DNA from: Eledone cirrhosa
Taxonomy: Eukaryota
DNA length: 64,000 nucleotides
Direction: 5' to 3'
Assembly: GCA_964016885.1 (NCBI GenBank)
Contig: OZ024744.1
Location: forward strand, 42,842,001 to 42,906,000
This document shows, piece by piece, positions 8,889-58,872 of this stretch. Position numbers and translations under genes: made by a program. The first letter of the stretch is position 1; the number at the start of each line of letters is the position of its first letter. The notes under the pieces were generated by a model, which was not told the DNA's origin, did no database searches, and worked only from the letters and a program-made list of their open reading frames with translations.

Positions 8889-10860
8889 AGAGAGAGACTG
8901 TCTCCTTGAAATATACCCCTGTGATATCCTATTTTATCAGTGAAAATAGAGTCCTCCTCTGTTTTTAACTTTAGGATAGTAGCCCAAGAAGAAGACAGCT
9001 TCTCTATGGCTCTGATAATAATGTCTGGGACTTTAGCAAGTTGGAGGGCCTTTATCATCCAAGAGTGGGGAACAGAATCGAAAGCTTTCCTGTAGTCCAG
9101 CCAGACTGTCTCCATATTCCTCCTAATTGTGTCACCTCTGACATCGCAGTTTTGTTGATTAGGAGTTGTTCAGCACATCCCCAAACCCTTTACTTTCCAG
9201 CTGCTTGTTCTTCTGTGATGATGTTATTATTTTCAGTGATCATTGAGAAATAGGTTCAGGTTGGCTGTATACATCTTATACATTAGGTTCTGGCATGCAA
9301 TGGGTCGGTAGTTTATTGCCAAGTGGGTGTCTTTGTTCTTGGGGACCAGTATTATTTGTGCTAATGTCAACCATACTGGTGTACATGTATCTCCCTTGAG
9401 AGCTTGCTGGTAGAGGTTGATAAAGTACATCTGATAAAATGTTAGTTTTTGTACCAGTAGCCAACAATCATGTCTCTTCCTGGTGTTTTCTTATCTTGGA
9501 ATTTTCCTATCACAGTCTCATGGGTATCCTCATTTATTCTGTAAGTTTTTGTTGTAGTTTTTGTTGTAGCAATAGCTCTTTTGGATTTATTTTAGCCACA
9601 CTGCATCTTGGTGGAAATTCTTTTCACCCCATATTTTTCTCCAGAAGGAATCTGTCTTTCTGGGATGAAGCCTGAATTACATTTATTAATTTGCCCTTCA
9701 TATCTCTATAGACTGATGTTTGGTTTCATCTGAATCTTTTATTAATTACTTTTCTTTCATCCACCCTCTTCAGGTATCGCCGTTTCTCACCGACAGCTCT
9801 CAATTCTTGTTTGAGGGTGATCAGCTTATATTGAAGAGTTCTAGTTGTACTGTTACCAAACATCGTTTCTATTTTATTTTTCACTCTTTGTTGGTGAGGA
9901 GTGAAGTTTTTTTTTGTTTTTGTTTGCAAGTAAGGAGCATACATACATATGCTATAGTTTTTTGTAGGTCAGCAATCGTTTTTTCTATTTTAGTTATATA
10001 CTAGCAAAATTGCCCGGCGTTGCTCGGGATTTGCTCTAGGGTTCTTATATATTTGATATATATTTATCCTTATCAAACCTCGTGAAATAAATATGTTTGT
10101 TAGTATTTTGTTATTGTGTATGCAAAAATATCTACACGAATATATAATTATATATATATATATATATATTAAAATAACAGATTAAAGTTTAAGCAAAGAA
10201 TCGCTGCTTTCACCCTTAACTGGATCTTCTGAAACGAAAAAAATCAATCTGTGAATGCAGAAGAATATTTCGAAAAACGTTACTATATATATACACACAC
10301 ACACTCTATATACATATATACACACACACAGCGTCATAATGTCGTAATGCAGACAGCCAGACATACAGACAGATATTATAAGAGTGCAACGTTATATCTA
10401 TGTATCTATCTAAAATGAAAGACTAAGAATTATAGAGATAGATCGCTAAATCGCCTAATGCGGTCCCTAAGGCATTGAAAATTTGAAATTGTTTTGCTCA
10501 AAACACTCACAGGACCATAAGTATTACGTGTGTAAAGTTTGAAAACAATCGGTTGCGTGGTTCTCGAGTTTTAGTGAGTCAGAGAGACAGACAGACATTC
10601 TCTGTTTTAGATATATAGATGATGGTATTTTTGGTGGTGTTTTGTTCTTGTTAATATATCTGCTATCACCAAGATAATGCTTCACTGTCATTGCTAGGGT
10701 ATATAAACAGGCGTTGATTTGCCAAAATGTGGGGGTTTTAATTCGTCGTAAATATTCATCCCCTATTTCGTCAATAACATGTAAGATTTCATTATTTGGT
10801 TTTATTTTGTTTAATATTGTTGTTTTATTACGTTGAATAAGAGTAATGTTTATATATAAA
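8889..10860 (-). mobile_element. R4/Dong-like (restriction-like endonuclease) non-LTR retrotransposon, N-terminal to mid-RT part, interrupted by a Helitron-like insert
   Basis: NYRPIACQNLMYK, WLDYRKAFDSVPHSW, RGIFQGDSLS; the protein continues KIP(S)/ITKIEKTI across the 10000-10620 insertion. Confidence 0.8.
10000..10620. mobile_element. Non-autonomous Helitron/Helentron-like element
   Basis: Terminus ACTAG...CCCGGCGTTGCTCGGG hairpin; acagacagac microsatellite near the other end; internal blocks shared with 43471-44480. Confidence 0.7.
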
Positions 10861-14332: not shown

Positions 14333-14690
14333 GAGTGCTTGCAGTCAAAAGGTTGTGAGTTCAATTCTCAGACTGGGTGAAGTTGTTTCCTTGAGCAAGA
14401 CACTTTATTTCACATTGTTCCAGTTTACTCAGCTGTAGAAATGAGATGATAGGACTGGGGTCCCTATCATTCCACTGCAAAGTGGTCGTGGAGGTGCCAC
14501 GGCAAAAAAGGACCCAGCCCACACTATAAAGTGGACGTGTAGGCGCCACGGCAAAAAAGCACCCAGCACTCACTGTAAATAAGGTTGGTGTTAGGAAGGG
14601 CATCCAGCTGTAGAAATCAAGCCAGAATCAGTTCCCGTCCCACCCTTGCAAGCAGGGAAAAGCGGACATAAAATGAAAAGATGATGATGA
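14333..14690 (+). mobile_element. tRNA-derived SINE with RTE-derived 3' end
   Basis: B-box-like gagttcaattc, ccttgagcaagacactttatttcac core, RTE 3' UTR motif, gatgatgatga tail; matches 19325-19757. Confidence 0.8.
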
Positions 14691-19324: not shown

Positions 19325-19757
19325 ATCATCATCATTTTACGTCCGCTTTTCCCTGCTTGCAAGGGTGGGACGAGAACTGATTCTGGCTTTTTTTCTACAG
19401 CTGGATGCCCTTCCTAACACCAACCTCATTTACAGTGAGTGCTGGGTGCTTTTTTTCCATGGCACCTACACATCCACTTTACAGTGTGGGCTGGGTGCTT
19501 TTTTGCCGTGGCGCCTCCACATCCACTTTACAGTGTGGGCTGGGTGCTTTTTTGCCGTGGCACCTCCACGACCACTTTACAGTGGAATGAAAGGGGCCCA
19601 AGTCCCTATCATCTCATTTCTACAGCTGAGTAAACTGGAGCAATGTGAAATAAAATGTCTTGCTCAAGGAAACAACACATCACCCGGTCTGAGAATTGAA
19701 CTCACAACCTTTCGATTGCAAGGCCAATGCTCTAACCACTAAGCCATGTGCCTCCAT
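19325..19757 (-). mobile_element. Full-length tRNA-derived SINE with RTE 3' end
   Basis: Minus strand reads ggaggcacatggcttagtggttagagc (A box)...gagttcaattctc (B box), core, ~47-bp repeats, RTE motif, (GAT)n. Confidence 0.85.
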
Positions 19758-19898: not shown

Positions 19899-20677
19899 CT
19901 GAAAAAGGACTTATGTCCGAATTGCCTCTACTTTCTCATAAGTGTAATACTAATGAGGCTGTTCTTGCATCCCTGTGATTGTGTTGACATTCCTTTAACT
20001 ATATATATATATGCATAATGTGTGTATGTATATGTATGTATGTGCATGTATGTATGAATACGTTTATGTTTTTATATATGTGTGTGTGTATAATCCCCTC
20101 ATGTTATTAAAGCTCGATGTATTATTTAGGTCAAATCCTGTAAGTCACAAAATCCAGAGTGTATGATACTAGTAGTTGAAGACAGGAAAAATCACAGAGC
20201 ATAAATATTTCAGAGGAAGTAACTAAAGGCTTCACTCAGTTAAAACCATTTATTTCAATAAACGTTTCGATTAAGAGAGATATAATAGCAATTAACTTAA
20301 TTAATTATTCACTTAATTATATCAATGATACAAACATCTCTCAGAATCTCATTAGGAAACAGACTTATTTAGATGAGTAACTTGGTCCCATTATGTTATT
20401 GCACAACCAAGCATTCGAGAAGAAAAAGACACACAAGAAAAAGAAAAGAAAGACAACCTAGGTCAGGTACATGTTGAAAGGCACATAAATTTAAGCATTG
20501 TGGAGGAAGTAAGTTATGCAGTGAAATGAAAAATTGCTAAAGAGCACAAGTTTAGACAGAGAGACAAGTCACAATGTAAACCGAGAACAAAGATATTTAA
20601 GTTATGTTTGTTGTTATTCATTATGGTATTAGGTGTATTTAGTGAGAAACCCTTGCTAGCAGGGAAAGCAATATTAA

Positions 20678-20832
20678 CCTTTTAGCATTTACATTACTCT
20701 ATATATACTATTGTATTTTTGTGGTAAAGGCTTTACCTCACATAATTTTCTCACATAATATCGAATCTATGAGATTTTGATATTATTTATTTTGAGAACA
20801 ATACTTTAACATTAGTATGAGTGGCTGGTTAA
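20678..20832 (+). mobile_element. piggyBac-like MITE, 3'-truncated copy
   Basis: TTAA|CCTTTTAGCATTTACATTACTCTATATATAC...; single copy of the 72-bp unit sequence. Confidence 0.8.
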
Positions 20833-21689: not shown

Positions 21690-22003
21690 TGTAAAGTAGT
21701 TGTGTAGGTGTCACAACAAAAATCTCTCAGCCCACACTGTAAAGTAGTCGCATAGGAGTCACGACAAAAAGTTCCCAGTTCACACTGTAAAGTGGTCACG
21801 TAGGATCACGACAAAAAGCACGCAGCACATGCTATAAATGTGGTTGGTATTAGGAAGGGCATTGAGCCATAGAAACCTAGCCAGAAACATTTCTGTATGA
21901 GCAAGACACAGTCACCTGATCTGACTTGCCTCAGCTGGGACAACCTGTCTAACCAATGCTAGCGTGGAAAATGGACATGAAACAATGATGATTTTGATGA
22001 TGA
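21690..22003 (+). mobile_element. RTE 3' UTR fragment
   Basis: ~47-bp repeats, ggtattaggaagggcat motif, gatgatga tail. Confidence 0.8.
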
Positions 22004-23959: not shown

Positions 23960-24322
23960 TAGCCCACACTGTAAAGTGGTCATGTAGGTGCCACGACAAA
24001 AAGCACCCGGTCCACACTGTAAAGTGGTTATGTAGGTGTCACGACAAAATGCACTCAGTCCACACTGTAAAGTGGTCATGTAGGTGTCACGACAAAATGC
24101 ACTCAGTCCACACTGTAAAGTGGTCATGTAGGTGTCATGACAAAAAGCACCCAGTATACACTGTAAATGAAGTTGACATTAAGAAGGGCATCCAGCTGTA
24201 GAAACCAGGCCAAAATAAGTTCTGTATGAGCAAAACATGGTCACCTAATCTGGCCTATCTCGCAATGGGACAACTCATCTAACCCAAGCTAGCATGGAAA
24301 AATGGACATTAAATGATGATGA
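23960..24322 (+). mobile_element. RTE 3' UTR with ~4.5 copies of a 47-bp repeat
   Basis: cacactgtaaagtggtcatgtaggtgtcacgacaaaa repeated, then the conserved motif and tail. Confidence 0.85.
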
Positions 24323-24618
24323 TATGGATATGTACTATAACTGTATATTTAGTGTATGCAAACATGCCTGTGTAACCTTATGGCAGATATGGGCTCTGTA
24401 ACCCACAGGGAAGGCTCTGTGTCTCTTGGAGGACAGTTACTCCAAATGAATATAAATGCACAGGTTGAGTTAGACATGGGTTCCACAAGCCTTAGCGAAG
24501 GCGACCCATCTTGGAGAGCAATCACTCTGAATAAAAACTGATATTGAGTAGAGAAAGTACTGGTAGACAACTTTTCTATTGCTGGTAGCACGATAAAATA
24601 CTCCCAGTCCACACTTAA

Positions 24619-24835
24619 CCCTTTAGCATTTAAACTGGCTGTATCCAGCCAGAATTCTCTTACCTCTTTCTGTTCAACTGGCTATAACCTGCCTCTCATA
24701 CTGATGTTAAGGTATTGTTCTCAAAATATATATCAAAATCTCATAGATTCAAAATTGTGTGAGATAATTATGTGAGGTAAAGCCTTTACTATGAAAATAC
24801 AATAGTATATATAGAGTAATGTAAATGCTAAAGGC
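24619..24835 (-). mobile_element. piggyBac-like MITE (uninterrupted, 217 bp)
   Basis: TTAA at 24615-18 and 24836-39; TIR CCCTTTAGCATTTA / TAAATGCTAAAGGC. Confidence 0.9.
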
Positions 24836-25318
24836 TTAATATTTGTTTTGATAGAAAGGACATCTAGCCAGAAAAAAAACAAAAACATGTCAATATTATT
24901 ACAAGCTCAACTTGGAATATAAACACCAACTGTTATGAAATTAAAAGCCAAACTAATTAGTCAAATTAAATGAGATGCCATTTGTTTGTGTGCCAGGAAG
25001 GAGTACCACAGATACCTTCTTCTTAGTGAGACAAGTTCCTAGCTGTTGTGATCTGAAGAGATATGCAGGTAAACGTTCAAGTCGAGGCCAGGTGATGATT
25101 GGATGTCTACGTAAGCATTAATATATATGTATGCAAAAAGTAAACGTAAACAACAAAGCAAACTATTCAGTACAATGAAGAAATATATATATACACATTC
25201 TTGTACTACCTGGTTTACTATACTAGTGACTAGCCTGTGTCCTGCTGCACTGAATAATTTAGCCATTTCTACAATAATCCCCAAAGAGCAGCTACCTTCC
25301 CTATTTTCATTTCCTTAA

Positions 25319-25526
25319 CCCTTTAACATTTAAACCAGCCGTATCCAGCCAGAATTCTCTCACCTCTTTCTGTTCAAACTGGCTGCAACCGACCACTCAT
25401 ACTGATGTTAAGGTATTGTTCTCAAAATAAATAATATCAAAATTTTATAGATTTTATATTATGTGAGATAAAGTGTTTACTTTGAAAATACAATAGTAAA
25501 TATAGAGTAATGTAAATTCTAAAGGG
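25319..25526 (-). mobile_element. piggyBac-like MITE (uninterrupted, 208 bp)
   Basis: TTAA at 25315-18 and 25527-30; CCCTTTAACATTTA / TAAATTCTAAAGGG termini. Confidence 0.9.
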
Positions 25527-25859
25527 TTAAACAGTTTATCTACCATATTACTGTCTACTATGATGGTTGACCCCTCAGCTCAGTCTATTTGAGATAGACC
25601 AAACTCTTTCATAATTTAAACAGTAATGAATATTACGTGTTCTGTTTGCTTTTCAAAAGCATGCTATTATTTTTATTTTTATTTTCTATTCTTCTGAATG
25701 TGTTAAGTATATTTTTCCCTGAAGAAATGAAGATTTTTGCTTGAGTGCCATTTAAATTCTATATTCTGGCACTACATTTATCTCCATAGAAACAAATGTA
25801 GAAGTTAAAGATGGAATTTGAATAACAACTATGGTTTTCGTTTTGTATTAACCCTTTAT

Positions 25860-26433
25860 CATTTACATTACTCTATATATACTATTGTACTTTCACTGTA
25901 ATAGCTTTATCTCACATAATATCTCACATAACATTTACATTACTCTATATATACTATTGTATTTTCACTGTAATAGCTTTACCACATATAATATCTCACA
26001 TAACATTTACATTACTCTATATATACTATTGTATTTTCACTGTAATAGCTTTACCACATATAATATCTCACATAACATTTACATTACTCTATATATACTA
26101 TTGTATTTTCACTGTAATAGCTTTACCTCACATAATATCTCACATAACATTTACATTACTCTATATATACTATTGTATTTTCACTGTAATAGCTTTACCA
26201 CATATAATATCTCACATAACATTTACATTACTCTATATATACTATTGTATTTTCACTGTAATAGCTTTACCACATATAATATCTCACATAACATTTACAT
26301 TACTCTATATATACTATTGTATTTTCACTGTAATAGCTTTACCACATATAATATCTCACATAACATTTACATTACTCTATATATACTATTGTATTTTCAC
26401 TAATAGCTTTACCTCACATAATATCTCACATAA
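25860..26433 (+). repeat. 8 tandem copies of a 72-bp unit (left array)
   Basis: Units start at 25860, 25932, 26004 ... 26364; the last has a 2-bp deletion. Confidence 0.97.
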
Positions 26434-26646
26434 CATCTCGTATACGAGAGACGTGTATTGACGTGTGTGAACAAGCTCGGCTACCGAGTTGGATTTACTT
26501 ACTCAAAAGTGAGTTTTGATTAATTTTTTTATACTGTAATATACGTTAACCCCTTGCCTTGGTCGTCAAACTTTGAGTTTATTTATTTTCGCCCCTTTTT
26601 GGGGCGAATTTTCCAGTTAAAAATTTATTACAGCAAACTAATAGAA

Positions 26647-28346
26647 ATGGACGGAATTTTCACATCTAACGAGAAAGCCACGCCCCCTAAGAAAGGTGAT
26701 ACAGAGAAGCTAGAAGCACAAGGCTCTAAGTCTTCCCTCCTCACTTCTGCAAAAGAAACATGGAACACGGAATTAAAAGAAAAATTTGTAAAAATGGGTG
26801 AAAACCCAGAAAGTCACATAAACGCAGACAAAAACAACAATGACAATAACAGCAATAGTCACAACACCAACCAAGGAAAAAATAACGATAACACCAAACA
26901 AAGCGAACCCACTACTTTGCACAGGCGGTCCAGAAAACACAGACCTGCAAGCAACTGGACATTACAACTCTGAGAGAAAAGATGAAGGAAGCAAAACAGT
27001 ATGTAACTTTCAAAGAAGGAGGAGACTTCACAATCACCTCCCCACAAGAAATCAAAAGAGACACGATACTAAGAACGATATCGTTCAGAACACTTTCCAA
27101 CATAACAAGGAAACCAGCTCAATTATCCCAAAAAGAAATTGAGCTAGTCCTAAAAAATGTGTGGAGTGATATATCGTTCATACAAAAAGGGCCACTCTAT
27201 GGGAATATAACGGTGCTAATGAAGGATCAATTGACGGCCAGGAAATACTCTGTGGCACCAATTGTTTCCAAGCTACACACATTTTTCCCCACATATTTAG
27301 GGAAAAGAACGCAGAAAATAAGGGTCTCCGGAATCCGGCCAAATGCATGCATTTCCTGGGTACTAACAGGATTTTTAGAAGACGTGGATGGAATCCTCTC
27401 AGTAGGAGAAGTCACAACAGACGTTTTCGGCGGTTTGAGCGTGGAGGTCCTGGTCCAAATGAGACCAGAACGAATAGCTAGAATACCACAGAGGGTGTCC
27501 CTCGATGGAGAAACATTTATATATATTTCAGCCGAGGGTAGGAGGCCCATATGTTACTACTGTTCAAGCAGGGGTCATCTAAGGGCTGCCTGTCCTCAAT
27601 TGACAAAAAAAAAGGCTCTTTTGCCTACACCCCACACACCACCACTGCCACCACCACCACAACAACAACAAAAACAACATGGAAAAATAACACAAGACAC
27701 GGCCCCACCCAAAACAACTCCAAAAACACACACAAACACAACAAAACCCCAAAATACACCACTACCCGACAGAACGGACGAGGACCCAGCTGAAACGGCA
27801 CCTAGTGACGAAGAGGGGGGACCCTTCCAACCTGTAAAAAGGAAAAAAAGAAAGCACCACTCGAACATAAACAAAACAAACACACAACCACCAACAAAAA
27901 CAAAACAAACAGAACAAACAAAATCCGCCCCACCCCAAAACATAACACATACAACAAAACGTAAGCACACACAAGAACAACAAACAAACACAACACAAAT
28001 AAAACAGTATACATACATTAACACAAATAACAAAGAACTAGTAAAAACAATACACAAAGACCCTTCGGTGGAAACTGAAGGGCAATTCTTTGCAAGCGCG
28101 GCCAACAAACCGCATTTAAAAATGATAAGACTCCCAATGGACACCTATGCAAAACTAAGAGAGAACTTTCCTGAGGACGTGGGGGAAACATGTACTCGAC
28201 CCTATAACCGCGTCCTCTTGAAACGTTTCCCCACCCACACCTCACCAAACACCCCCACTCCACCACAGAACAACACCCCACCAAACAACCCCTCCAATAC
28301 GCCCATGGATATTGTGCAACCTGCTCCTCAGGAGCCGAACAGGTAG
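26647..28346 (+). pseudogene. Tx1-like ORF1 (gag-like, CCHC knuckle), one frameshift at ~26916
   Basis: ATG at 26647; adding one T at ~26916 gives PTTFAQAVQK and joins ORF 26982-28346; CYYCSSRGHLRAAC; Pro/Thr/Lys-rich tail. Confidence 0.8.
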
Positions 28347-28367
28347 GTCCTTCCTCTTTTAACCAAC

Positions 28368-31300
28368 ATGGCTGATATAAGAGTTGGGTGTCTGAATGTA
28401 CGCGGCCTGGGACTGTCTTGGAAACAAGGCAAACTTTTAAACGATCTCAGGTCGCATAGAATGGATGTAAAGGCTATTTGCGAGTCCAGGATCAGCAGCG
28501 AGCACCAACTGGCGCCCCTCTTCGACGACTTTGAGATCTTCGCATCTCTCTGTCAACCGGGGAATGGGGGTGGAGTTGTTGTTCTGCTGCGAAAACACCT
28601 GGGCCTCGCCATACAGAAGGTGCACCTGGACCCGGAGGGTCGACTGGTGGTTTTAGACGTCGGCAGTAGTGAAAGTGGAGCCCTTAGACTAATAGCTGTG
28701 TACGCCCCTTTTTGGGCAGCGCGGCCGGAATACTTCCAACGTCTGGAAACTTTTCTGGGAACGTCCCGCTCCTTGCTTTTAGTGGGGGACTGGAATGGTA
28801 TCCTGGATGCACGTTGGGACTATGTAGAGGCATGTGCCAATAGAGGGGGGTGTAAAAGCCTCAAAAGGTTAATCGGCCGATTTGACCTGGCCGATAGATA
28901 TCGACTAGATTTTCCGACTGTACCATTATGGACGTGGACCAATCGCAGCGGAACATCTAGGTCGTACCTAGATAGGGTCCTAGTTAGAGAGAAGGATAGG
29001 GACACATTTAGCTGTCCAAAAATGTTCATGGTTGACTATTCGGATCACAAGTTAGTGACCTGCATAGCCAAGCTTGATAGAACCCATAGACAGGAACCCG
29101 GTTACTGGAAGCTGAACTTGTCCTTACCGACAAGCAAAGCTTACAGTAAACGGATTAGCACGTTAGTTACGCAGAGTTTGACGGGGGCAATTGTCAACAA
29201 CAGGTGGTGGAGCTCTCTTAAGAGAGCAATTAGAATAGAATCGATAGGTTTTAGTCAGGAATTAGCAAGGGATAGGAACAAGACGGAAAGGGAATTAGTA
29301 GATAGAGTAGAAGAGGCGATTAGGAGTGGCAATGTAGCCGGCGTGCTGGCATCAAGAATGGCCTTAGACCAGTTCTTTGAGGTGAAGCATGAAGGCTGCG
29401 TTGTCAGGAGTAAAATACGTGCTCTGGGTAATGAGGGAGCCAAAGCTGTTAGCTGGGCCCGAGTGACAGAGGCAAAAAGTGGGAACAAGTCCACAATTCG
29501 GTCTTTGAAGGACCAGGATGGGCGTGTGATCCTTGAACCTGGGCAGATGTGTGCGGCCTTTCAGCGACACTTTGCACGACTGTTCGAGAGGGGCGGCGCG
29601 CCGGGTGGGACTATGGATTTCAATCCATACCTCGACGGTCTGCCGCGCCTCTCGGGAGCGGAGGCGAAGTCCTGCGAAAGGACGATTTCAGCTGCTGAGA
29701 TAGGGGCGGCGCTGAGCCAATGCGGCAAACGCAAATCCCCGGGTCTCGATGGTCTACCATACGAGCTATATGTAGCGATGCCGGACTTGTTCTCCGATAT
29801 CCTCGAAGCGGTCTACTGCAGCTGGCAGCAGAACGGGAGAATTCCCAGTTCTGTAACCAAGGGCGTAGTTACGCTGGTGAGGAAGGATGAGAACAAGGGG
29901 GATGACATAAGTAACTTCAGGCCCATAACTCTGCTAAATACAGAGTTAAAGATTTTGGCCAAGGTGTTAGCGAAGAGGTTGGCGCTTGTCGTCGGAAACC
30001 TGGTGGGAGAAGCGCAGACATGCGCAATCCCGTCCAGGACCATTCACGACAATCTCCAGCTTATGCGATACATCATAGAGAGGGTAGGGAATGAACCCGG
30101 CTTTGGTGGGGCCTTGATCAACTTGGATCAATCTAAAGCTTTCGATAGGGTTGACCATCGTTACCTGGATGCGGTGCTCGCGGCGGCAGGCTTCGGACCC
30201 GTTTTCAGGGGTTGGATTGCTGCGATGCACAGCAGCAACGTCTGCTCAAGGGTCAAGGTGAACGGCCACCTCTCGGAGCCGTTCCAAATCATGCGATCCA
30301 TCCGACAGGGATGCCCTCTCTCCTCCCTTCTGTATGTGCTGGCTCTTGAGCCACTACTGCGGAAGTTGGAGCGGTTGCAGGGCATCCCTTTGGAACCGGG
30401 ATTGCAGAAAGCGGCGTCGGCCTACGCCGATGACGTGACAGTAATGGTGTCGAAAACCTCGCAAATCGGTGAGATCGGCACCTTACTGGAGGAATATGAA
30501 AGGTTTACAGGAGCCAAGCTGAACCGGGACAAGTCCGTCGGTTTTCAACTCGGAACATGGAGAGGCAAACCGATGCCCTCCAATGACGTCGTCGGATGCT
30601 GGACGGAGGGCCCGGTGAAGCTGCTTGGGGTCTGGTTCGGACCAGACCTCCAGGTGGAGAAAAACTGGAACGAGGTAACGGCCAGGGTGTTTGCACTCAC
30701 CCAGAAGTGGGCCCAGTGCAAACTATCCCTGAAAGGTCGAGCGGAGGTGGCGAATACTTATATAGCATCCGTCATCTACTACCGCTTGACCGTCGTGCCT
30801 TGCCCAGTGAAAAGACTCGCCAAAATGGAGTGCGCGCTGTTCCAATTTCTTTGGAACAAGCGGACCCCTTTGGTGAGGAGATCCATCTGCTGTCAACACC
30901 CTTCGAAAGGAGGGCTGGGGATGCCGTGGCTACAGATGCGTAAACACGCATTAAGGCTATGGCACCTCCAGGTATTCCTCACCGGTCAACCGGTGTGGGC
31001 CCCGTTTGTGAGGCGAGCCTTTCCCAGACTCGTCTCGCTCACCGAGCTGCAATCCTGGGTCAAGCAAAGACCGAGAAAAGTGGGCGACTGGCACATTGTA
31101 TGTGCCCAGGCGCTCACGGCCCTCTGGAAAGCGGACCCGGCAATCAGTGGAGACTCCACCTAGACATTCTATAGAGGGTTGGTACGCAGCAGGTGCGACG
31201 ATGCTCTCGGAGAAGCTCTAGGCATGGAGGAAGATGAACTGGCCAGTCTGTTCGGTAGGACGTTTGGCCCTGGACCGATGGACAACTTCCAAAAGTCCCT

Positions 31301-31805
31301 GGCTTGGCAGTGCTACCGAGGGGCTCTACCCGTTCGAGACAAGCTCCACAGGTATGGGAGCCTGGGTAGAGATCCTTTGAATAAGATCTGTCCGAGATGC
31401 GTGCATGATGACGAAACCGTTGCGCACGCATTCGTACACTGCCCAGGCATTGCTGACCTGTGGGGCTATGTGGAACGACTACTGTCGAGGGTGGGACCAA
31501 TCCGGTTGATCACCGAGTCCATTGTCACGATCAAACCGCCTCCCCCTTTCAAAAACGAAGGAGAGGCGGTTTTTCTCTGTGTGATAGCCATGGCTAAAGA
31601 AGTTGTATGGTGGACGAGGCTGAAAGGGCTGAGGTCAGACACCTTTCTCTCCGGCCAACAACTGGTCCCCTTTTTCAAATACCATTTTAAAAGAAGGATC
31701 AGAATGGAGAGAGAGGTGCTCTACCCCAGCAAGTTTTATGAAAGGTGGGTGAAAGTAGGGAGAATGGCCAGAGTGAATGGGTCTTCTCTCTATATCAGCC
31801 TGTAG
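28368..31805 (+). pseudogene. Tx1-like ORF2 (AP endonuclease, reverse transcriptase, zinc-binding domain), one in-frame TAG at 31161-31163
   Basis: LNVRGL, VYAP, GDWN, SYLDRV, SDH; KSPGLDG, NFRPITLLN, DQSKAFDRVDH, RQGCPLS, AYADD; ORF 31179-31805 is in the same frame with CPRC...HAFVHC. Confidence 0.92.
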
Positions 31806-32042
31806 GTGAAAGAAGAGGAAAAAGAGGAGACGAGGGAAGCACCTACTCTTTGTGCTCCTGAGGAGAAGGGTTGCACATTTTTTCCGGGGTGTGTGCGACC
31901 CATGTTAATGCCCCCTCCCTATTGAGGACTTCGTTTGTTGTTGTTATTTCATTGTTATATTTTTGTACTCGTTAATTATATGTAAACTTCCCCCCTTGTA
32001 TCTGTCCCTACCTTTTGTGCCCTAGTGGCAAATAAAGAAACC

Positions 32043-33173
32043 ACTCTATATATACTATTGTATTTTCACTGTAATTGCTTTACCACATATAATATCTCAC
32101 ATAACATTTACATTACTCTATATATACTATTGTATTTTCACTGTAATAGCTTTACCTCACATAATATCTCACATAACATTTACATTACTCTATATATACT
32201 ATTGTATTTTCACTGTAATAGCTTTACCACATATAATATCTCACATAACATTTACATTACTCTATATATACTATTGTATTTTCACTGTAATAGCTTTACC
32301 ACATATAATATCTCACATAACATTTACATTACTCTATATATACTATTGTATTTTCACTGTAATAGCTTTACCACATATAATATCTCGCATAACATTTACA
32401 TTACTCTATATATACTATTGTATTTTCACTGTAATAGCTTTACCTCACATAATATCTCGCATAACATTTACATTACTCTATATATACTATTGTATTTTCA
32501 CTGTAATAGCTTTACCACATATAATATCTCACATAACATTTACATTACTCTATATATACTATTGTATTTTCACTGTAATAGCTTTACCTCACATAATATC
32601 TCGCATAACATTTACATTACTCTATATATACTATTGTATTTTCACTGTAATAGCTTTACCTCACATAATATCTCGCATAACATTTACATTACTCTATATA
32701 TACTATTGTATTTTCACTGTAATAGCTTTACCTCACATAATATCTCGCATAACATTTACATTACTCTATATATACTATTGTATTTTCACTGTAATAGCTT
32801 TACCACATATAATATCTCACATAACATTTACATTACTCTATATATACTATTGTATTTTCACTGTAATAGCTTTACCTCACATAATATCTCGCATAACATT
32901 TACATTACTCTATATATACTATTGTATTTTCACTGTAATAGCTTTACCACATATAATATCTCACATAACATTTACATTACTCTATATATACTATTGTATT
33001 TTCACTGTAATAGCTTTACCTCACATAATATCTCGCATAACATTTACATTACTCTATATATACTATTGTATTTTCACTGTAATAGCTTTACCTCACATAA
33101 TATCTCGCATAACATTTACATTACTCTATATATACTATTGTATTTTCACTGTAATAGCTTTACCTCACATAAT
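32043..33173 (+). repeat. 72-bp tandem array (right): partial + 14 full + partial units
   Basis: Full units start at 32105, 32177 ... 33041; the last unit from 33113 runs into the MITE right arm. Confidence 0.97.
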
Positions 33174-33425
33174 ATTGAATCTATGAGATTTTGATATTAT
33201 TTATTTTGAGAACAATACTTTAACATCAGTATGAGTATCAAATTACAGCTGGTTTGAACAGAAAGTGGTGAAAGAATTCCGGTCGGATACAGCCAGTTTA
33301 AATGCTAAAGGGTTAATTATTAATGCTTTGCGGCTTACACAGTCTTCATCTACCTGTATCTTATCACATTGAGCTTGACGTACATTACCAAAATAATAGT
33401 GGATTATTCCATTATTATATATATA

Positions 33426-39975: not shown

Positions 39976-40191
39976 CCCTTTAGTTACTCATAAGTTACAT
40001 TCCTTTATATTTTCTATTGTATTTTCATGGTAATGGCTTTATCTCACATAATATCGAATCTATGAGATTTTGATTTTATTTATTTTGAGAACAATACCTT
40101 AAAATAAGTATAAGCAACTGGTTGCGGCCGGTTTGAACAGAAATAGATGAGAGAATTCTGGCTGGATACAGCCAATTTAAAGGCTAAAGGG
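39976..40191 (+). mobile_element. piggyBac-like MITE (uninterrupted, diverged)
   Basis: TCAA|CCCTTTAG ... GCTAAAGGG|TTAA; single copy of the unit region. Confidence 0.85.
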
Positions 40192-40214
40192 TTAAGTCAA
40201 CTGCTTTGTTTATT

Positions 40215-47150: not shown

Positions 47151-47652
47151 ATCATCATCATCATCATCATCATCACCGTTTTACGTCCGTTCTTCCATGC
47201 TAGCATGGGTTAGACGGGTTGTCCTGTTGAGGGCAGTGTCTGGTCGACTGACCATGCCTTGCTCATACAGGAACTGATTTTGGCTTGATTTCTACAGCTG
47301 GATGCCCTTCCTAACGCCAACCTCATTTACAGTGAGTGCTGGGTGCTTTTTTTCCGTGGCGTCTACATGTCCACTTTACAGTGTGGGCTGGGTGCTTTTT
47401 TGCCATGGCACCTCCACGACCACTTTGCAGTGGAAGGGTGTGGGGGCATATTATTGTCTATATGCTTCAGCTTGTACCCATGGGAGGTCGGGAACTCAGT
47501 ATTACTCGTGATGCCGAAGGGCACGGTCATGTGTCATTGCCTTTGAGAGGTGTAATTGGGTAAGGTCGGCTTTTATCACCTCATCCCAGGTCATCTTGGG
47601 TCAACCCACTCCGCGGTTTCCATTGATTTCTAGTGCTTTGCACCTTTTTATC
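47151..47652 (-). mobile_element. 5'-truncated RTE (3' end), abutting the satellite
   Basis: Reverse complement closely matches 2290-2761; (CAT)n tail. Confidence 0.9.
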
Positions 47653-47654
47653 AT

Positions 47655-50600
47655 TATGTGATGTGATGTGGAGAAAGACAGGTGTGTTAGGTAAGACACA
47701 GTGTGATGTGATGTGGAAAGACAGGTGTGTTAGGTGAGACACAGTGTGATGTGAAGTGAGACAGGTGTGTTAGGTAAGACACAATGTCATGTAAAGAGAG
47801 ACATGTGTGTTAGGTGAGACACAGTGTGATGTGGTGTGAAGAGAGACAGGTGTGTTAGGTGAGACAGAGTGTGATGTGAAGAGAGACAGATGTGTTAGGT
47901 AAGATACAGTGTCATGTAAAGAGAGACATGTGTGTTAGGTGAGACACAGTGTGATGTGATGAGAAGAGAGACAGGTGTGTTAGGTGAGACACAGTGTGAT
48001 GTGGTGTGAAGAGAGACAGGTGTGTTAGGTGAGACAGAGTGTGATGTGAAGAGAGACAGGTGTGTGAGGTGATACAGTGTGATGTGAAGAGAGACAGGTG
48101 TGGTAGGTGAGACACTGATGTGAAGAGAGACAGGTGTGTTAGGTAAGACACAGTGTGATGTGAAGTGAGACAGGTGTGTTAGGTAAGACACAGTGTGGTG
48201 TGGAGAGAGACAGGTGTGTCAGGTGAGACACAGTGTGATGTGAAGAGAGACAGGTTTGTTAGGTGAGACACATTGTGATGTGGAGAGAGACAGGTGTGTT
48301 AGGTGAGACACAGTGTGATGTGGTGTGAAGAGAGACAGGTGTGTTAGGTGAGACACTGATGTGAAGAGAGACAGGTGTGTTAGGTAAGACACAGTGTGAT
48401 GTGAAGTGAGACAGGTGTGATGTGAAGAAAGACAGGTGTGTTAGGTAAGACATAGTGTGATGTGGAAAGACAGGTGTGTTAGCTGAGACACTGTGATGTG
48501 AAAAGAGACAGGTGTGATGTGGTGTGAAGAGAGACAGGTGTGATAAGGTGAGACACAGTGTGATGTGGTGTGAAGAGAGACAGGTGTGTTAGGTGAGACA
48601 CAGTGTGATGTGAAAAGAGACAAGTGTGTTAGGTAAGACACAGTGTGATGTGAAGAGAGACAGGTGTGTACGGGTGAGACACTGTAATCTGAAGAGAGAC
48701 AGGTGTGTTAGGGTGAGACACTGTCATGTGAAGACAGACATGTGTGAAAGGTAAGACAGTGTGATGTGAAGAGAGAAAGCTGTGTTAGGTAAGACATCGT
48801 GTGATGTGGAGAGAGACAGCTTTGTTAGGTGAGACACAGTGTGATGTGGAGAGAGACAGGTGTGTTAGGTGAGACACAGTGTGGTGTTGAGAGAGACACA
48901 GTGTGATGTGAAGAGAGACAGCTTTGTTAGGTAAGACACAGTGTGATGTGGAGAGAGACAGGTGTGTTAGGTGAGACACAGTGTGGTGTTGAGAGAGACA
49001 CAGTGTGATGTGAAGAGAGACAGCTTTGTTAGGTAAGACACAGTGTGATGTGGAGAGAGACAGGTGTGTTAGGTGAGACACAGTGTGATGTGAAGAGAGA
49101 CAGCTTTGTTAGGTGAGACACTGTGATGTTGAGAGAGACACAGTGTGATGTGAAGAGAGACAACTTTGTTAGGTAAGACACAGTGTAATGTGGAGAGAGT
49201 CAGGTGTGTTAGATGAGACCTAATGTGATGTGAAGAGAGACAGGTGTGTTAGGTAAGACACAGTGTGATGTGGAGAGATACAGGTGTGTTAGGTGAGACA
49301 AAGTGTGATGTGAAGAGAGACAGGTGTGTTAGGTAAGACACAGTCTGATGTGAAGATAGACTGGTGTGTTAGGTAAGACAGTGTGATGTGAAGAGAGACA
49401 GGTTTGTTAGGTAAGACACTGTGATGGGGAGAGAGAGACAGGTGTGTTAGGTGAGACACAGTGTGATGTGAAGAGAGACCGGTGTGTTAGGTGAGACACA
49501 GTGTGATGTGAAGAGAGACATGTGAGTTAGGTAAGACACAGTGTGATGTGGAGAGAGACAGGTGTGTTAGGTGAGACACAGTGATGTGAAGAGAGACAGG
49601 TGTGTTAGGTAAGACACTGTGATGTGGAGAGAGAGACAGGTGTGTTAGGTGAGACACAGTGTGATGTGATGTGAAGATAGACTGGTGTGTTAGATGAGAC
49701 ACTGTCATGTGAAGAGAGACAGGTGTGTTAGGTAAGACACAGTGTGATGTGACGAGAGACAGTTGTGTTAGGTGAGACACAGTGTGATGTGAAGAGAGAC
49801 AGGTGCCTTAGGTGAGCCACAGTGTGGTGTGATGTGAAGAGAGACAGGTGCCTTAGGTGAGCCACAGTGTGATGTGATGTGAAGGCAGACAGGTGTGTTA
49901 GTTAAGACACAGTATGATGTTGAGAGAGACAGGTGTGTTAGGGGAGACAACAATGTGATGTGATTTGGAAAGACACGTGTGTTAGGTGAAACAGTGTGAT
50001 GTTGAGAGAGACAGTTGTGTTAGGTGAGACACAGTGCGATGTGTAGAGAGACAGGTGTGTTAGGTAAGACACAGTGTGATGTGAAGAGAGACAGGTGTGT
50101 TAGGTGAGACACTGTGATGTGGAGAGAGTCAGGTGTGTTAGATGAGTCACTGTGATGTGAAGAGAGACAGGTGTGTTAGGTAAGACAGTGTGACGTGATT
50201 TGGAAAGAGAGGTGTGTTAGATTAGACATAGTGTGATGTGAAGAGAGACAGGTGTGTTAGGTGAGACACAGTGTGATGTGAAGAGAGAAAGGTGTGTCAG
50301 GTAAGACACAGTGTGATGTGAAGAGAGACAGGTGTGTTAGGTGAGATACAGTGTGGTGTGGAGAGAGACAGGTGTGTTAGGTGAGACACAATGTGATGTG
50401 ATTTGGAAAGACAGGTGTGTTAGGTGAGACTGTGATTTGATATGAAGAGAGACAGGTGTGTTAGGTAGGGCACAGTGTGATGTGATGTAAAGAGACACAG
50501 GTGTGTTAGGTGAGACAAGGTGTGATGTGAAGAGAGACAGGTGTGTTAGGTGAGACACAGTGTGATGTGAAAAGAGACAGGTGTGTTAGGTAAGACAGTG

Positions 50601-53600
50601 TGATGGGAAGAGAGACAGGTGTGTTAGGTAAAACACAGTGTGATATTATGGGAAGAGAGACAGGTGTGTTAGGTGAGCCTCAGTGTGATGTGGAGAGACA
50701 GGTGTGTTAGATGAGACAGGTGTGTTAGTTAAAACAGTGTGATGTGAAGAGAGACAGGTGTGTTAGGTGAGCCACAGTGTGATGTGAAGAGAGACAGGTG
50801 TGTTAGGTAGGACAGTGTGATGTGAAGAGAGACAGGTGTGTTAGGTAAAACACAGTGTGAAATTATGGGAAGAGAGACAGGTGTGTTAGGTGAGACAGTG
50901 TGATGTGAAGAGAGACAGGTGTGTTAGGTAAGACAGTGTGATGTGAAGAGAGACAGGTGTGTTAGGTGAGCCACAGTGTGATGTGAAGAGAGACAGGTGT
51001 GTTAGATGAGACAGTGTGATGTGAAGAGAGACAGGTGTGTTAGGTAAGACAGTGTGATGTGAAGAGAGACAGGTGTGTTAGGTGAGCCACAGTGTGATGT
51101 GAAGAGAGACAGGTGTGTTAGGTAAGACAGTGTGATCTGAAGAGAGACAGGTGTGTTAGGTAAGACACAGTGTGATGTGGAAAGACAGGTCTATTAGGTG
51201 AGACACAGTGTGATATGAAGAGAGACGGGTGTGTTAGGTAAGACACTGTCATGTGAAGAGAGACAGGTGTGTTAGATGAGACACAGTGTGATGTGATGTG
51301 AAATGAGACAGGTGTGTTAGGTGAGACACAGTGTGATGTGGAGAGAGATGTGTTAGGTGAGACACAGTGTAATGTAAAGAGAGACATGTGTGTCATGTGT
51401 GACACAGTGTGATGTGAAGTGAGACAGGTGTGTTAGGTAAGACACAGTGTCATGTGAAGAGAGACAGGTGTGTTACGTGACACACAGTCTGATGTGAAGA
51501 GAGACAGGTGTGTTAGGTGAGACATAGTGTGATGTGATGTGAAGAGAGACAGGTGTGTTAGGTAAGATACAGTATGATGTTGAGAGAGACAGTTGTGTTA
51601 GGTGAGACACAGTGTGATGTGGAGAGAGACAGGTATGTTAGATGAGACCTAGTGTGATGTGAAGAGAGACAGGTGTGTTAGGTGAGACACAGTGTGATGT
51701 GTAAAGAGACAGGTGTGTTAGGTGAGACAGCGAGATTTGATATAAAGAGAGACAGGTGTGTTATTTAGGACACGATGTGATGTGAAGAGAGAATGGTGTG
51801 TTAGGTGAGACACAGTGTGATGTGAAGTGAGACAGTTGTGTTAGGTAAGACACAGTGTCATGTGAAGAGAGACAGGTGTGTTAGGTGAGACACAGTGTCA
51901 TGTGAAGAGAGACAGGTGTGTAAGGTGAGACACAGTGTGATGTGAAGAGAGACAGGTGTGTTAGGTAAGACACAGTGTGATGTGACGAGAGACAGGTGTG
52001 TTAGGTGAGATACAGTGTGATGTGAAGAGAGACAGGTGTGTTAGGTGAGACACGTTGTGATGTGATGTGAAGAGAGACAGGTGTGTTAGGTAAGATAAAG
52101 TGTGATGTGGTGTTAAGAGAGAGGTGTGTTGGGTAAAACACTGTAAAACACTGTGATGTTATGTGAAGAGAGACAGGTGTGTTAGGTGAGACACAGTGTG
52201 ATGTGAAGAGAGACAGGTGTGTTAGGTGAGACATAGTGTGATATGAAGAGACAGTGTGTTAGGTAAGACACAGTGTGATGTGAAGAGAGACAGGTGTGTT
52301 AGGTGAGACACAGTGTGATGTGAAGAGAGACAGGTGCCTTAGGTGAGACAGTGTGATGTGATGTGAAGACAGACAGGTGTGTTAGGTAAGACACAGTATG
52401 ATGTTGAGAGAGACAGGTGTGTTGGGGGAGACAACAATGTGATGTGATTTGGAAAGACACGTGTGTTAGGTGAGACAGTGTGATGTTGAGAGAGACAGTT
52501 GTGTTAGGTGAGACACAGTGTGATGTGAAGAGAGACAGGTGTGTTAGGTGAGACACTGTGATGTGGAGAGAGTCAGGTGTGTTAGATGAGACACTGTGAT
52601 GTGAAGAGAGACAGGTGTGTTAGGTAAGACAGTGTGATGTGATTTGGAAAGACAGGTGTGTTAGATGAGACAGTGTGATGTGAAGAGAGACAGGTGTGTT
52701 AGGTGAGACACAGTGTGATGTGAAGAGAGAAAGGTGTGTCAGGTATGACACAGTGTGATGAGAAGAGAGAAAGGTGTGTCAGGTAAGACACAGTGTGATG
52801 TGAAGAGAGACAGGTGTGTTAGGTGAGACACAGTGTGGTGTGGAGAGAGATAGGTGTGTTAGGTGAGACACAACGTGATGTGATTTGGAAAGACAGGTGT
52901 GTTAGGTGAGACAGTGTGATTTGATATGAAGAGAGACAGGTGTGTTAGGTAGGGCACAGTGTGATGTGATGTAAAGAGAGACAGGTGTGTTAGGTGAGAC
53001 ACAGTGTGATGTGAAGAGAGACAGGTGTGTTAGATAAGACAGTGTGATGTGAAGAGAGACAGGTATGTTAGATGAGACCTAGTGTGATGTGAAGAGAGAC
53101 AGGTGTGTTAGGTGAGCCTCAGTGTGATGTGGAGAGACAGGTGTGTTAGGTGAGACAGTGTGATGTGAAGAGAGACAGGTGTTTTAGGTAAGACACTGAT
53201 GTGGAGAGAGACAGGTGTGGTGTGATGTAAAGAGAGACAGGTGTGTTAGGTAAAACATTGTGATGTGAAGAGAGACAGGTGTGTTAGGTGAGACACGGTG
53301 TGATGTGAAGAGAGACAGGTGTGTTAGGTAAGACAGTGTGATCTGAAGAGACACAGGTGTGTTAGGTAAAACACAGTGTGATGTGATGTGAAGAGAGACA
53401 GGTGTGTTAGGTAAGACACAGTGTGATGTGGAAAGACAGGTCTATTAGGTGAGACACAGTGTGATATGAAGAGAGACAGGTGTGTTAGGTAAGACACAGT
53501 GTCATGTGAAGAGAGACAGGTGTGTTAGATGAGACACAGTGTGATGTGAAGTGAGACAGGTGTGTTAGGTAAGATACAGTGTGATGTGAAGAGAGATGTG

Positions 53601-56600: not shown

Positions 56601-58872
56601 GAGAGACAGATGTGTTAGGTAAGACAGTGTGATTTGAAGAGAGACAGGTGTGTTAGGTAAAACACAGTATGATGTGATGTGAAGAGAGACAGGTGTGTTA
56701 GATGAGACACTGATGTGGAGAGACAGGTGTGTTAGGTAAGACACAGTATGATGTGATGTGGAAAGACAGGTCTATTAGGTGAGACACAGTGTGATATGAA
56801 GAGAGACAGGTGTGTTAGGTAAGACACAGTGTCATGTGAAGAGAGACAGGTGTGTTAGATGAGACACAGTGTGATGTGAAGAGAGACAGGTGTGTTAGGT
56901 GAGACACAGTGTGATGTGGAGAGAGACAGGTGTGTTAGGTAAGATACAGTGTGATGTGAAGAGAGATGTGTGTTAGGTGAGATACAGTGTAATGTAAAGA
57001 GAGACAGGTGTGTCAGGTGTGACACAGTGTGATGTGAAGAGAGACAGGTGTGTTAGGTAAGACACAGTGTCATGTGAAGAGAGACACAGTGTGATATGAT
57101 GTGAAGAGAGAAAGGTGTGTTAGGGGAGACAACAATGTTGATGTGATTTGGAAAGACAGGTGTGTTATTTAGGACACAGTGTGATGTGAAGAGAGAATGG
57201 TGTGTTAGGTGAGACACAGTGTCATGTGAAGAGAGACAGGTGTGTTAGGTGAAACACAGTGTGATGTGAAGAGAGACAGGTGTGTAAGGTGAGACACAGT
57301 GTGATGTGATGTGAAGAGAGACAGGTGGGTTAGGTAAGACACCGTGTGATGTGAAGAGAGACAGGTGTGTTAGGTGAGACACAGTGTGATGTGGAAAGAC
57401 AGGTGTGTTAGGTGAGACACAGTGTGATGTGAAGAGAGACAGATGTGTTAGGTAAGACAGTGTGATTTGAAGAGAGACAGGTGTGTTAGGTAAAACACAG
57501 TATGATGTGATGTGAAGAGAGACAGGTGTGTTAGATGAGACACAGTGTGATATGAAGAGAGACAGGTGTGTTAGGTAAGACACAGTGTCATGTGAAGAGA
57601 GACAGGTGTGTTAGATGAGACACAGTGTGATGTGATGTGAAGAGAGACAGGTGTGTTAGGTGAGACACAGTGTGATGTGGAGAGAGACAGGTGTGTTAGG
57701 TAAGATACAGTGTGATGTGAAGAGAGATGTGTGTTAGGTGAGACACATTTTAATGTAAAGAGAGACGTGTGTCAGGTGTGACACAGTGTGATGTGAAGAG
57801 AGACAGGTGTGTTAGGTAAGACACAGTGTCATGTGAAGAGAGACAGGTGTGTTAGGTGAGACACAGTGTGATGTGATGTGAAGAGAGACAGGTGTGTTAG
57901 GGAAGATACAGTATGATGTTGAGAGAGACAGTTGTGTTAGGTGAGACACAGTATGATATTGAGAGAGACAGTTGTGTTAGATGAGACCTAGTGTGATGTG
58001 AAGAGAGACAGGTGTGTTAGGTGAGACACAGTGTGATGTGGAAAGAGACAGGTGTGTTACGTGAGACATATAGTGATGTGAAGAGAGACAGGCGTGTTAG
58101 GGGAGACAACAATGTTGATGTGATTTGGAAAGACAGGTGTGTTAGGTGAGACAGCGAGATTTGATATGAAGAGAAACATGTGTGTTATGTAGGACACAGT
58201 GTGATGTGATGTGAAGAGAGAATGGTGTGTTAGGTGAGACACAGTGTGATGTGAAGAGAGACAGGTGTGTTAGGTGAGACACAGTGTGATGTGAAGAGAG
58301 ACAGTTGTGTTAGGTAAGACACAGTGTCATGTGAAGAGAGACAGGTGTGTAAGGTGAGACACAGTGTGATGTGATGTGAAGAGAGACAGGTGTGTTAGGT
58401 GAGACACAGTGTGATGTGAAGAGAGACAGGTGTGTTACGTAAGACAGAGTGTGATGTGAAGAGAGACAGGTGTGTAAGGTGAGACACTGTGATGTGATGT
58501 GAAGAGAGACAGGTGTGTTAGGTGAGACACAGTGTGATGTGAAGAGAGACAGGTGTGTTACGTAAGACAGTGTGATGTGAAGAGAGACAGGTGTGTTAGG
58601 TGAGACACAGTGTGATGTGGTGTGAAGAGAGACAGGTGTGATAGGTGAGACACAGTGTGATGTGAAGAGAGACAGTTGTGTTAGGTAAGACACAGTGTGA
58701 CGTGAAGTGAGACAGGTGTGTTAGGTGAGACACAGTGTGATTTGATGTGAAGAGAAACAGGTGTGTTAGGTGAGACAGTGTGATGTGAAGAGAGACAGGT
58801 GTGTTAGGTGAGACACAGTGTGATGTGATGTGAAGAGAAACAGGTGTGTTAGGTGAGACACAGTGTGATGTG
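47655..58872. repeat. ~11.2-kb satellite, ~40-bp unit (gtgtgatgtgaagagagacaggtgtgttaggt(g/a)agacaca)
   Basis: Continuous tandem array with 2-5-bp indel variants; about 280 units by length. Confidence 0.98.

Follow-up and report, generated by a model that had tools for sequence, protein, structure and literature searches.

The locus studied here raises the question of how a LINE came to lie within a tandem array that itself lies within a MITE, and whether reverse transcription had any part in making the array. The window is the whole stretch of DNA that was analysed, 64,000 nt in length. It holds a TTAA-flanked MITE copy (25852..33312, on the plus strand like all features given below), delimited from the sequence and by alignment with the other copies. 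TTAA is found at 25848-25851 and 33313-33316. Terminal inverted repeats beginning with CCC are a hallmark of piggyBac-type elements, and the MITE has both such repeats and the TTAA target duplication. When empty it measures about 210-220 bp. This copy instead contains an array of 24 units of 72 bp and, seated in that array, a LINE of 5.6 kb. The array unit corresponds to MITE positions 9-80, so that its start falls inside the terminal inverted repeat. Eight units lie to the left of the LINE (25860..26433), the eighth with a 2-bp deletion. The right array (32043..33172) comprises a first unit of 62 bp starting at position 11, 14 full units and a last unit of 60 bp.

The LINE (26434..32036) is of the Tx1/L1 type, apparently full length and inactivated, and terminates in AATAAA as do its relatives. 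ORF1 (26647..28346) consists of two frames, 26647-26973 and 26892-28346, which we infer to be joined by a frameshift. Tx1-clade ORF1 proteins combine one or more RNA-binding domains with a CCHC knuckle, and one CX2CX4HX4C knuckle could be read straight off the ORF1 sequence. Pfam gave no match to ORF1 and no homologue was found among 4729 candidates; look-alikes in the Atlas bear zf-CCHC and RRM families (0.89-0.92), which we treat as a lead only. ORF2 (28368..31805) encodes an APE endonuclease (Pfam: PF03372), a reverse transcriptase (Pfam: PF00078) and, as the C-terminal zinc-binding domain, zf-RVT (Pfam: PF13966), as in the Tx1 clade. It is interrupted by a premature stop at 31161-31163, where the relative P0003 is open. 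The closest solved relative is L1 ORF2p, with an E-value of 1.5e-53 versus 8e-24 for R2, and a search of ORF2 against plasmids gave no match. In a quick tree of 33 rows, none of them a curated reference for Tx1 or L1, the one row named TX1 (P0078) forms a long branch outside the clade of 13 rows discussed below. ORF1 and ORF2 are separated by a 21-nt spacer. The 3' terminus (31990..32036) is laid out in the alignment as in relatives, with a pyrimidine tract, a short hairpin and AATAAA; the hairpin is weak compared to shuffles (z +0.3). The rest of the window contains neither another copy nor a fragment of the LINE, which leaves one copy of the family, and neither the MITE, the array unit nor the LINE UTR had a match in the 41 relative loci. 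Rfam had no match in the locus at E-values up to 1 nor in the window at the gathering score, and therefore no known ribozyme. Among the relatives, it had none in 8 further loci and, among 5 loci, only U1 in L037.

At the 5' junction (26434..26449), the LINE adjoins the end of unit 8 at 26433. Three bases are common with unit positions 1-3 and are followed by a 14-bp palindrome (26436-26449), which is possibly junction filler and whose hairpin is ordinary compared to shuffles (z -1.2). Given the three common bases, the junction lies at unit phase 0-3. The first-pass annotation had placed the 5' end on the unit boundary, which is right as to position; the coincidence is weak and no more than chance could give, with p = 4/72 = 0.056, or 0.069 as a post hoc chance of a boundary coincidence at either junction with an ambiguity of four phases. 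The array exit tatcgaat, also given there, stems from other MITE copies, and the array-bearing copy exits after one sub-repeat. The first 11 bases of the LINE might conceivably be a copy of a unit sub-repeat. At the 3' junction the sequence agrees with the earlier description: AATAAA at 32031-32036 is followed by six non-unit bases (32037-32042) and by unit position 11 from 32043, and there is no poly(A) tail or other A-tract. The six bases have no match near the 5' junction and are absent from 25800-26700, therefore they do not yield a short TSD. The simplest reading is the deletion of 7-10 bp of target, as had been proposed, and target site truncation is a described outcome elsewhere (PMC4494074). 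Taken alone, this junction geometry is ordinary: there is close precedent for the insertion of a Tx1-type LINE into a TTAA MITE at the cost of a little target.

The ends of relatives, which share 42% ORF2 identity with the window LINE, were used for comparison. None of 61 motif-defined ends on 16 contigs has A8 within 25 nt of the end; the 61 ends are non-independent (about 10 target classes), and the motif used to pick them would overlook ends of dissimilar sequence. The window LINE aligns with these AATAAA ends. Because relatives at 42% identity also end at AATAAA without a tail, the missing poly(A) is therefore a trait of the lineage; the canonical 3' poly(A) tail of L1 is absent from the window LINE and from 61/61 ends of relatives. 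A single filler, of 24 nt, follows AATAAA among the 61 ends, and save for it no donor flank was seen behind AATAAA at about 10 target sequences. Three loci have both ends, with TSDs of 13 bp (L041), 18 bp with 2 mismatches (L016) and 16 bp (L019), the last lying within a tandem repeat of about 454 bp. In relatives, whole elements of 6.4-6.9 kb each are stacked head to tail around one short TSD.

The units flanking the LINE had been said not to form a simple TSD. Unit 8 is of C type and has the 2-bp deletion, whereas unit 9 is of A type and has A44T, therefore a one-unit TSD of 62-65 bp is unsupported and the statement is correct for one unit. It does not extend to two-unit and six-unit duplications centred on the LINE, which match by unit type. 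The duplication made on insertion might thus have spanned one, two or six units minus 7-10 bp, with the copies later diverging by mutation or conversion, and the same top-strand cut site may even have seeded the first unit duplication. The matches at k = 2 and k = 6 favour such a long duplication (p 0.02 for k ≥ 6), as do a 159-bp duplication in a U1 gene at the distant relative L037 and a 126-bp stagger cited for R9 (PMC6895275). However, units of the array match at a lag of six in 14/18 cases (p 0.0098, or 0.045 when corrected for 10 lags). Six-unit squares are found at the unit junctions 8|9, 9|10, 10|11 and 18|19, so that the period extends two units past the LINE and recurs far from it. 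Close relatives have TSDs of only 13-18 bp, even within a tandem repeat, and k = 1 requires four differences in 62 bp. We therefore consider a long target duplication unlikely.

The first-pass annotation offered a different origin for the array. Read-through RNA carrying whole units would prime in register at a fixed nick and add units at each round, which makes the array a by-product of reverse transcription. Since AATAAA is missing from the sense strand of the units, a transcript that escaped could continue through them, and annealing in register would be scarless. Read-through RNA that anneals to the target helps R2Ol (PMC6530143). The array is present only in the LINE-bearing MITE, while 4 other sizeable copies have neither array nor LINE, and re-insertion at the same site does occur in relatives. 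Priming again and again at one nick, as the first-pass annotation proposed, thus fits the relatives, but what it stacks there is whole elements. The eight left units stay unexplained, being upstream of the 5' end and out of reach of 3' read-through. The blocks expected to the right are absent too: no duplicated block starts at unit 9, the first right-hand unit, for k = 1-8. Relatives, as seen above, arrive at new sites without any 3' flank of the donor except for the one filler, and MITEs with internal arrays are described that lack any LINE (PMC3879986). An origin by read-through is thus very improbable, and the array is probably no product of reverse transcription.

We favour, by some distance though short of confidence, a combined account in which the junctions reflect a DNA-level array and a tail-less LINE insertion, and the RNA an ORF2-closing duplex. 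Amplification at the DNA level would have turned a 72-bp piece of the MITE into a tandem array, into which the LINE would then have inserted with the loss of 7-10 bp of target. The six extra bases may be filler, the start of a TSD of the donor site or the family's own last bases. Slight turnover of the array would have continued after the insertion. The order array, insertion, turnover is probable. The order of unit types continues across the LINE; the G67 variant is found in 8/15 scorable right units versus 0/8 left units, and 3/3 private changes are in edge units (p about 0.005). Nick positions are inferred. The window offers one copy of the family, too few to reveal a junction habit of its own, and the relatives are only 42% identical.

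The second part of this account concerns the RNA. The region of the ORF1 stop and the ORF2 start is complementary to the end of ORF2, with 71 predicted pairs between arms 3.4 kb apart. The predicted 5' arm (28307..28389) covers the ORF1 end and stop, the spacer, and the ORF2 AUG with its first codons. The predicted 3' arm (31780..31885) covers the last ORF2 codons, the ORF2 stop and the first 80 nt of the 3' UTR, and is thus mostly non-coding in the window LINE. Its alignment score of 47 was reached by 0/1000 UTR shuffles and 0/60 whole-element shuffles. The long arm ranks first of 31-35 peaks in the window, in c12 and in 4/4 intact representatives of the P0004 family. The same pairing is found in all three branches of the clade with DNA, and these three duplex families are the three deepest branches of the 13-row clade (SH-aLRT 100, quick tree). 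Arms from the same family pair at -62 to -88 kcal/mol, compared to -32 to -48 kcal/mol across families. In a codon-anchored register c11 and c12 each pair 9/9, with both partners changed in 5/9 core pairs, compared to 0-2 pairs in 12 registers slid from it, where register and 9-bp core length were picked after looking. The window LINE pairs 6/9 in this register and 7/9 at +2. Within the P0004 family, both-sided changes occur in 2/40 inter-arm pairs.

Tested against 3' UTRs alone, the duplex was negative in 14/14 relatives, because their 3' arm lies inside ORF2. With the ORF2 end added, it ranks first in 9/12 representatives of the P0004 family, and in 2 more the top window lies just past the cut; c12 ranks 9 at coarse steps. 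In the degenerate copy L041 the duplex ranks second to third, and 37 with the ORF2 end added. A free protein-only search was powerless (0/15 below p 0.05 including the positive control; 7 proteins without an anchor). We consider it probable, from sequence comparison, that the duplex forms in vivo.

The complementarity might nevertheless be functionless, either as the remnant of an ancient inverted duplication or because conserved residues happen to fit. Amino acids alone do shift the null energy (-11 to -15 versus -8 to -10 kcal/mol in other windows). The synonymous-codon nulls give p 0.008-0.09, with 2/6 representatives at p of 0.05 or more, and the protein-only test gives p 0.01 and 0.03 in two families and 0.21-0.71 in four. 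In distant L037 the duplex was not seen (rank 7th of 64 and 16th of 31). On the other hand, the 3' arms share just 5-7/18 bases between families, yet the best partner of each is its own 5' arm, and the window 3' arm is largely non-coding. A functionless match is therefore improbable.

If the duplex forms, pairing of the ORF1 stop/ORF2 AUG region with the ORF2 end would loop out about 3.4 kb of ORF2. The helix could hide the ORF2 AUG until it is unwound by a ribosome that completes ORF1 and then reinitiates, which would keep ORF2 protein low and coupled to ORF1 translation. Such a gate on ORF2 translation is conceivable, and we rate it a little below an even chance. An overlapping stop-start (TAATG) in c12 and spacers of 14 and 21 nt in the other families are as expected under termination-reinitiation, known from SART1 and L1 (PMC5972666). 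Stop-codon read-through was rejected as a general role because the frames differ among families, ORF1 and ORF2 being in frame only in the window LINE. Alternatively, the duplex might govern splicing: by masking a donor site located at the ORF1 stop, it would preserve full-length RNA over an ORF1-only message. The window and 6/6 P0004-family representatives have donor-like motifs at the ORF1 stop, and such motifs follow the ORF2 stop in 8/8 tested (weak in the window); a pyrimidine tract lies close to the LINE 3' end. But in c12, which has the duplex, the ORF1 stop lacks a donor motif. Copies without ORF2 were absent from the loci, whose retrieval by ORF2 would miss them. We give little credence to the splicing role. 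Returning to the gate, a broader proposal, more tentative still, is that the whole clade loops ORF2 by start-end pairing, either as a gate that admits to ORF2 only those ribosomes which complete ORF1 on an intact RNA, or by returning ORF2 ribosomes to the AUG. Its tail-less RNAs would re-home to their own TSD by a short read-through tail, building arrays of elements.

For L1, translation of ORF2 from the bicistronic RNA is still described as unresolved in accounts of it (PMC5972666, PMC5009743). A helix that covaries and spans the ORF1 stop and the ORF2 AUG offers a defined element for disruption and repair in a reporter. No report of an ORF2-closing duplex in LINEs was found in searches of open-licence full texts, which do not take in Repbase Reports or most subscription journals. 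Moreover, tail-less ends, precise start points of reverse transcription and stacking at one site inform the choice of template end and target by APE-type LINEs.

Among known systems, plus-strand RNA viruses have 3'-proximal RNA that pairs kilobases upstream and controls decoding near a stop codon, and the long-range pairing predicted here is likened to theirs, the precedent being viral only. SART1 and mammalian L1 use a bicistronic RNA and termination-reinitiation, in SART1 with an overlapping stop-start and RNA structure downstream of it (PMC5972666). In contrast, the predicted partner of the window ORF2 start is the far ORF2 end; the 21-nt spacer excludes an overlapping stop-start, which only the relative c12 has. 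In R1Bm, priming by read-through is similar to that in R2. In R2Ol, a short stretch of RNA past the 3' end matches the target and base-pairs with the nicked primer, which makes the junction exact; multiplication of target repeats is not part of that description (PMC6530143). The DTC84 and pearl MITEs have ordered internal repeat variants changed by duplication and deletion. Their target is AA and their units, each about 160 bp long, number about 5-6 at most, unlike the 24 x 72 bp and TTAA of the window (PMC3879986). The crocodilian Tx1-Mar, Tx1-9_AMi and SINEU-3 prefer DNA transposons and leave a TSD or target truncation, and crocodilian Tx1 families form tandem insertions that sandwich a TSD (PMC4494074). 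The window LINE, with its target truncation of 7-10 bp on the simplest reading, and its relatives, with TSDs of 13-18 bp, resemble the Tx1 clade in this respect. Whereas SINEU has poly(A) tails, elements of this lineage end at AATAAA, and unlike in crocodilian Tx1 the arrays of relatives are built of whole elements. Tx1D of Xenopus has internal tandem repeats and TTAA ends, and Tx1L duplicates about 23 bp of target. Tx1L is a Tx1-clade LINE within the non-autonomous piggyBac element Tx1D (PMC4494074). The window LINE differs in its truncated target, in having one copy in the window where site specificity was shown for Tx1L, and in a 72-bp repeat derived from the MITE end. In Tx1D as in the window, a Tx1-type LINE lies within the internal repeats of a TTAA-flanked, non-autonomous element of the piggyBac type.

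The 5.6-kb LINE is flanked by eight units of a 72-bp array on the left and 16 on the right, and array and LINE together lie in a TTAA-flanked MITE (25852-33312), the array unit being MITE positions 9-80. Four other sizeable MITE copies, three near full length and one partial (24616-24840, 25316-25531, 39995-40194 and 20673-20831), and one short fragment were found in the window, none of them with array or LINE. A 12-13 bp sub-repeat of the MITE is doubled in two other copies and single in two. Broken RTE-like LINEs are abundant in the animal DNA of the window, where a SINE motif may point to an octopus. The window also holds an 11-kb satellite with a 40-bp repeat and strong GC skew (47662-58876), and at six sites (2490-2595, 14479-14579, 19429-19584, 21690-21826, 23964-24167 and 47326-47432) a single SINE-like family is present as short tandem repeats of 48-49 bp.

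ORF2 of the LINE encodes APE, RT and zf-RVT domains and is interrupted by a premature stop, which is absent from the relative P0003 (70% identical). ORF1 has a CCHC knuckle and is spread over two frames. The element is likely Tx1 rather than L1, on a tree that had no curated reference. A Tx1 element within a non-autonomous piggyBac is described as the founding case of the clade (PMC4494074), and a table in PMC13282606 lists L1-Tx1 and piggyBac among the families with recent activity in Octopus vulgaris.

Relatives were found at 41 loci in a single scan of genome contigs; 38 of these loci belong to one MAG record, on contigs that look eukaryotic, and three come from elsewhere. Most are whole elements in head-to-tail arrays with a spacing of 6.4-6.9 kb. 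The CAXXMW01 series (L001-L036, L039 and L040) is filed under a bacterial MAG and consists largely of such LINE arrays, and its contigs look like host DNA. Its copies have an ORF2 92-98% identical to the protein P0004 and differ strongly in ORF1 and 5' UTR, even inside a single array. On 16 contigs, 61 3' ends were defined by motif, and all of them terminate at a hairpin and AATAAA; eight A within 25 nt of the end were found in none of the 61, and a 24-nt filler in one. The 3' end of the window LINE shares this layout, so the absent poly(A) tail is a trait of the lineage. The bases 3' of AATAAA are locus-specific (about 10 classes, L041 included). At loci seen at both ends they are the TSD (13 bp at L041, 18 bp at L016, 16 bp at L019), and they are retained before 5'-truncated copies (three junctions) and at array ends (three junctions). 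The six bases after AATAAA in the window represent either filler, the TSD of a donor site or an end peculiar to this family.

The best comparison is L019, which lies within a tandem repeat of ~454 bp, yet has a short TSD. At its 5' end (L019:690-780) the first array copy has a duplicated filler together with sequence that agrees with the TSD found on contigs c5 and c9, suggesting that 5' sequence was carried along from a donor array. Long duplications do occur: L037, a distant Tx1-like element with 29% identity that sits in a U1 snRNA gene (L037:3036-3228 and 10008-10166), is accompanied by one of 159 bp and ends in a short A tail; a complete U1 gene lies upstream.

The junction sequences reported in the first-pass annotation were correct on re-reading, and for this lineage such a junction geometry is nothing unusual. 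The 5' end, which had been placed on the unit boundary, is compatible with unit phase 0-3, and this coincidence (chance 0.056, or 0.069 for either junction) is suggestive at most. The flanking units were rightly described as no one-unit TSD, which is unlikely because four differences in 62 bp would be required. Target truncation is an outcome already described (PMC4494074, PMC6895275). Private changes at 26402 (unit 8) and 32076 (unit 9) each lie ~33 bp from their own junction, a symmetrical arrangement. A short palindrome at the 5' junction of L006 (L006:14479-14500), made from the TSD end and possibly snap-back filler, resembles a 14-bp palindrome at window 26436-26449.

Cleavage is expected 10-30 nt downstream of AATAAA. 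Since this signal stands at the extreme terminus of the LINE, cleavage would fall inside the target; unit positions 24-34 are a T/G-rich stretch. A short target-matching tail behind AATAAA could then pair with the nicked primer, a step demonstrated for R2Ol (PMC6530143), and by analogy yield junctions that are exact and tail-less and allow the element to insert again at the same TSD. Such a tail would retain part of the earlier idea of repeated priming, with elements rather than units being multiplied.

That the array itself was produced by reverse transcription, as had also been proposed, is very improbable. Scoring the units as A or C type, with small counts and post hoc tests, gave a lag-6 match in 14 of 18 comparisons (p 0.0098; 0.045 over 10 lags) and six-unit squares centred on junctions 8/9, 9/10, 10/11 and 18/19. 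Squares starting at unit 9, the trace expected of 3' read-through into a similar array, are absent for k = 1-8. The unit order therefore continues across the LINE, the expectation if the array preceded it. Six units may have been duplicated at LINE insertion (p 0.02). All three private changes are in the edge units 1, 8 and 9 (p ~0.005), and the variant base G67 occurs only on the right (8/15 units, 0/8 on the left), which points to some later DNA-level turnover or to integration errors.

The part of the finding worth following is a predicted duplex that closes ORF2. The strongest inverted repeat of the window LINE joins the ORF1 end with the 3' UTR start and outscores 1000/1000 UTR shuffles and 60/60 whole-element shuffles; extended, the predicted duplex has 71 pairs (28307-28389 with 31780-31885) and spans the ORF1 stop and the ORF2 AUG. 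A test of 14 relatives confined to the 3' UTR was negative, and the same pairing emerged once the ORF2 end was included. When finer steps were used, the window, the relative c12 and four of four intact P0004-family representatives all had the long arm in first place; in five of these six the core also came first, and in the remaining one it tied. The degenerate L041 had rank 2-3, and nothing was found in the distant L037. Each family's arms pair best with their own partner. Anchored on conserved codons, in a register chosen after looking, the core helix has 9/9 pairs in c12, c11, c7 and c17, 8/9 in c8, c5 and c13 and 6/9 in the window. Between c11 and c12 five core pairs changed on both sides (slid registers 0-2); within the P0004 family alone (16 distinct rows) only 2/40 pairs covary. 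Synonymous nulls reached 15-181 of 2000, and a protein-only test gave support in two of six further families, one close to c12. A quick tree puts each of the three families with DNA on one of the three deepest branches of a clade of 13 rows, and the predicted pairing therefore looks ancestral to this clade. A 13-nt stretch in L019:7660-7700 identical to the window ORF1 end (28320-28332) is probably chance. The open-licence full texts searched yielded no report of a LINE whose ORF2 start pairs with its ORF2 end.

The constant feature is a predicted helix that covers or adjoins the ORF2 AUG, 8-21 nt downstream of the ORF1 stop. As less probable rivals to a role in translation, the duplex may hide a splice donor at this stop or may have no function; a donor motif occurs there both in the window and in the P0004 family, but c12 lacks it. 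Motifs resembling splice donors are found repeatedly in the window and its relatives, namely in the 5' UTR (26505-26515 in the window), at the ORF1 stop (28340-28349) and behind the ORF2 stop (31803-31811); in L041 the last of these donors has a complementary 10-nt stretch ~100 nt downstream. As a tentative reading, possible rather than probable, ribosomes finishing ORF1 would open the helix and reinitiate at ORF2, so that ORF2 output would be low and coupled to ORF1 translation. An overlapping stop-start is found in c12 as it is described for SART1 (PMC5972666).
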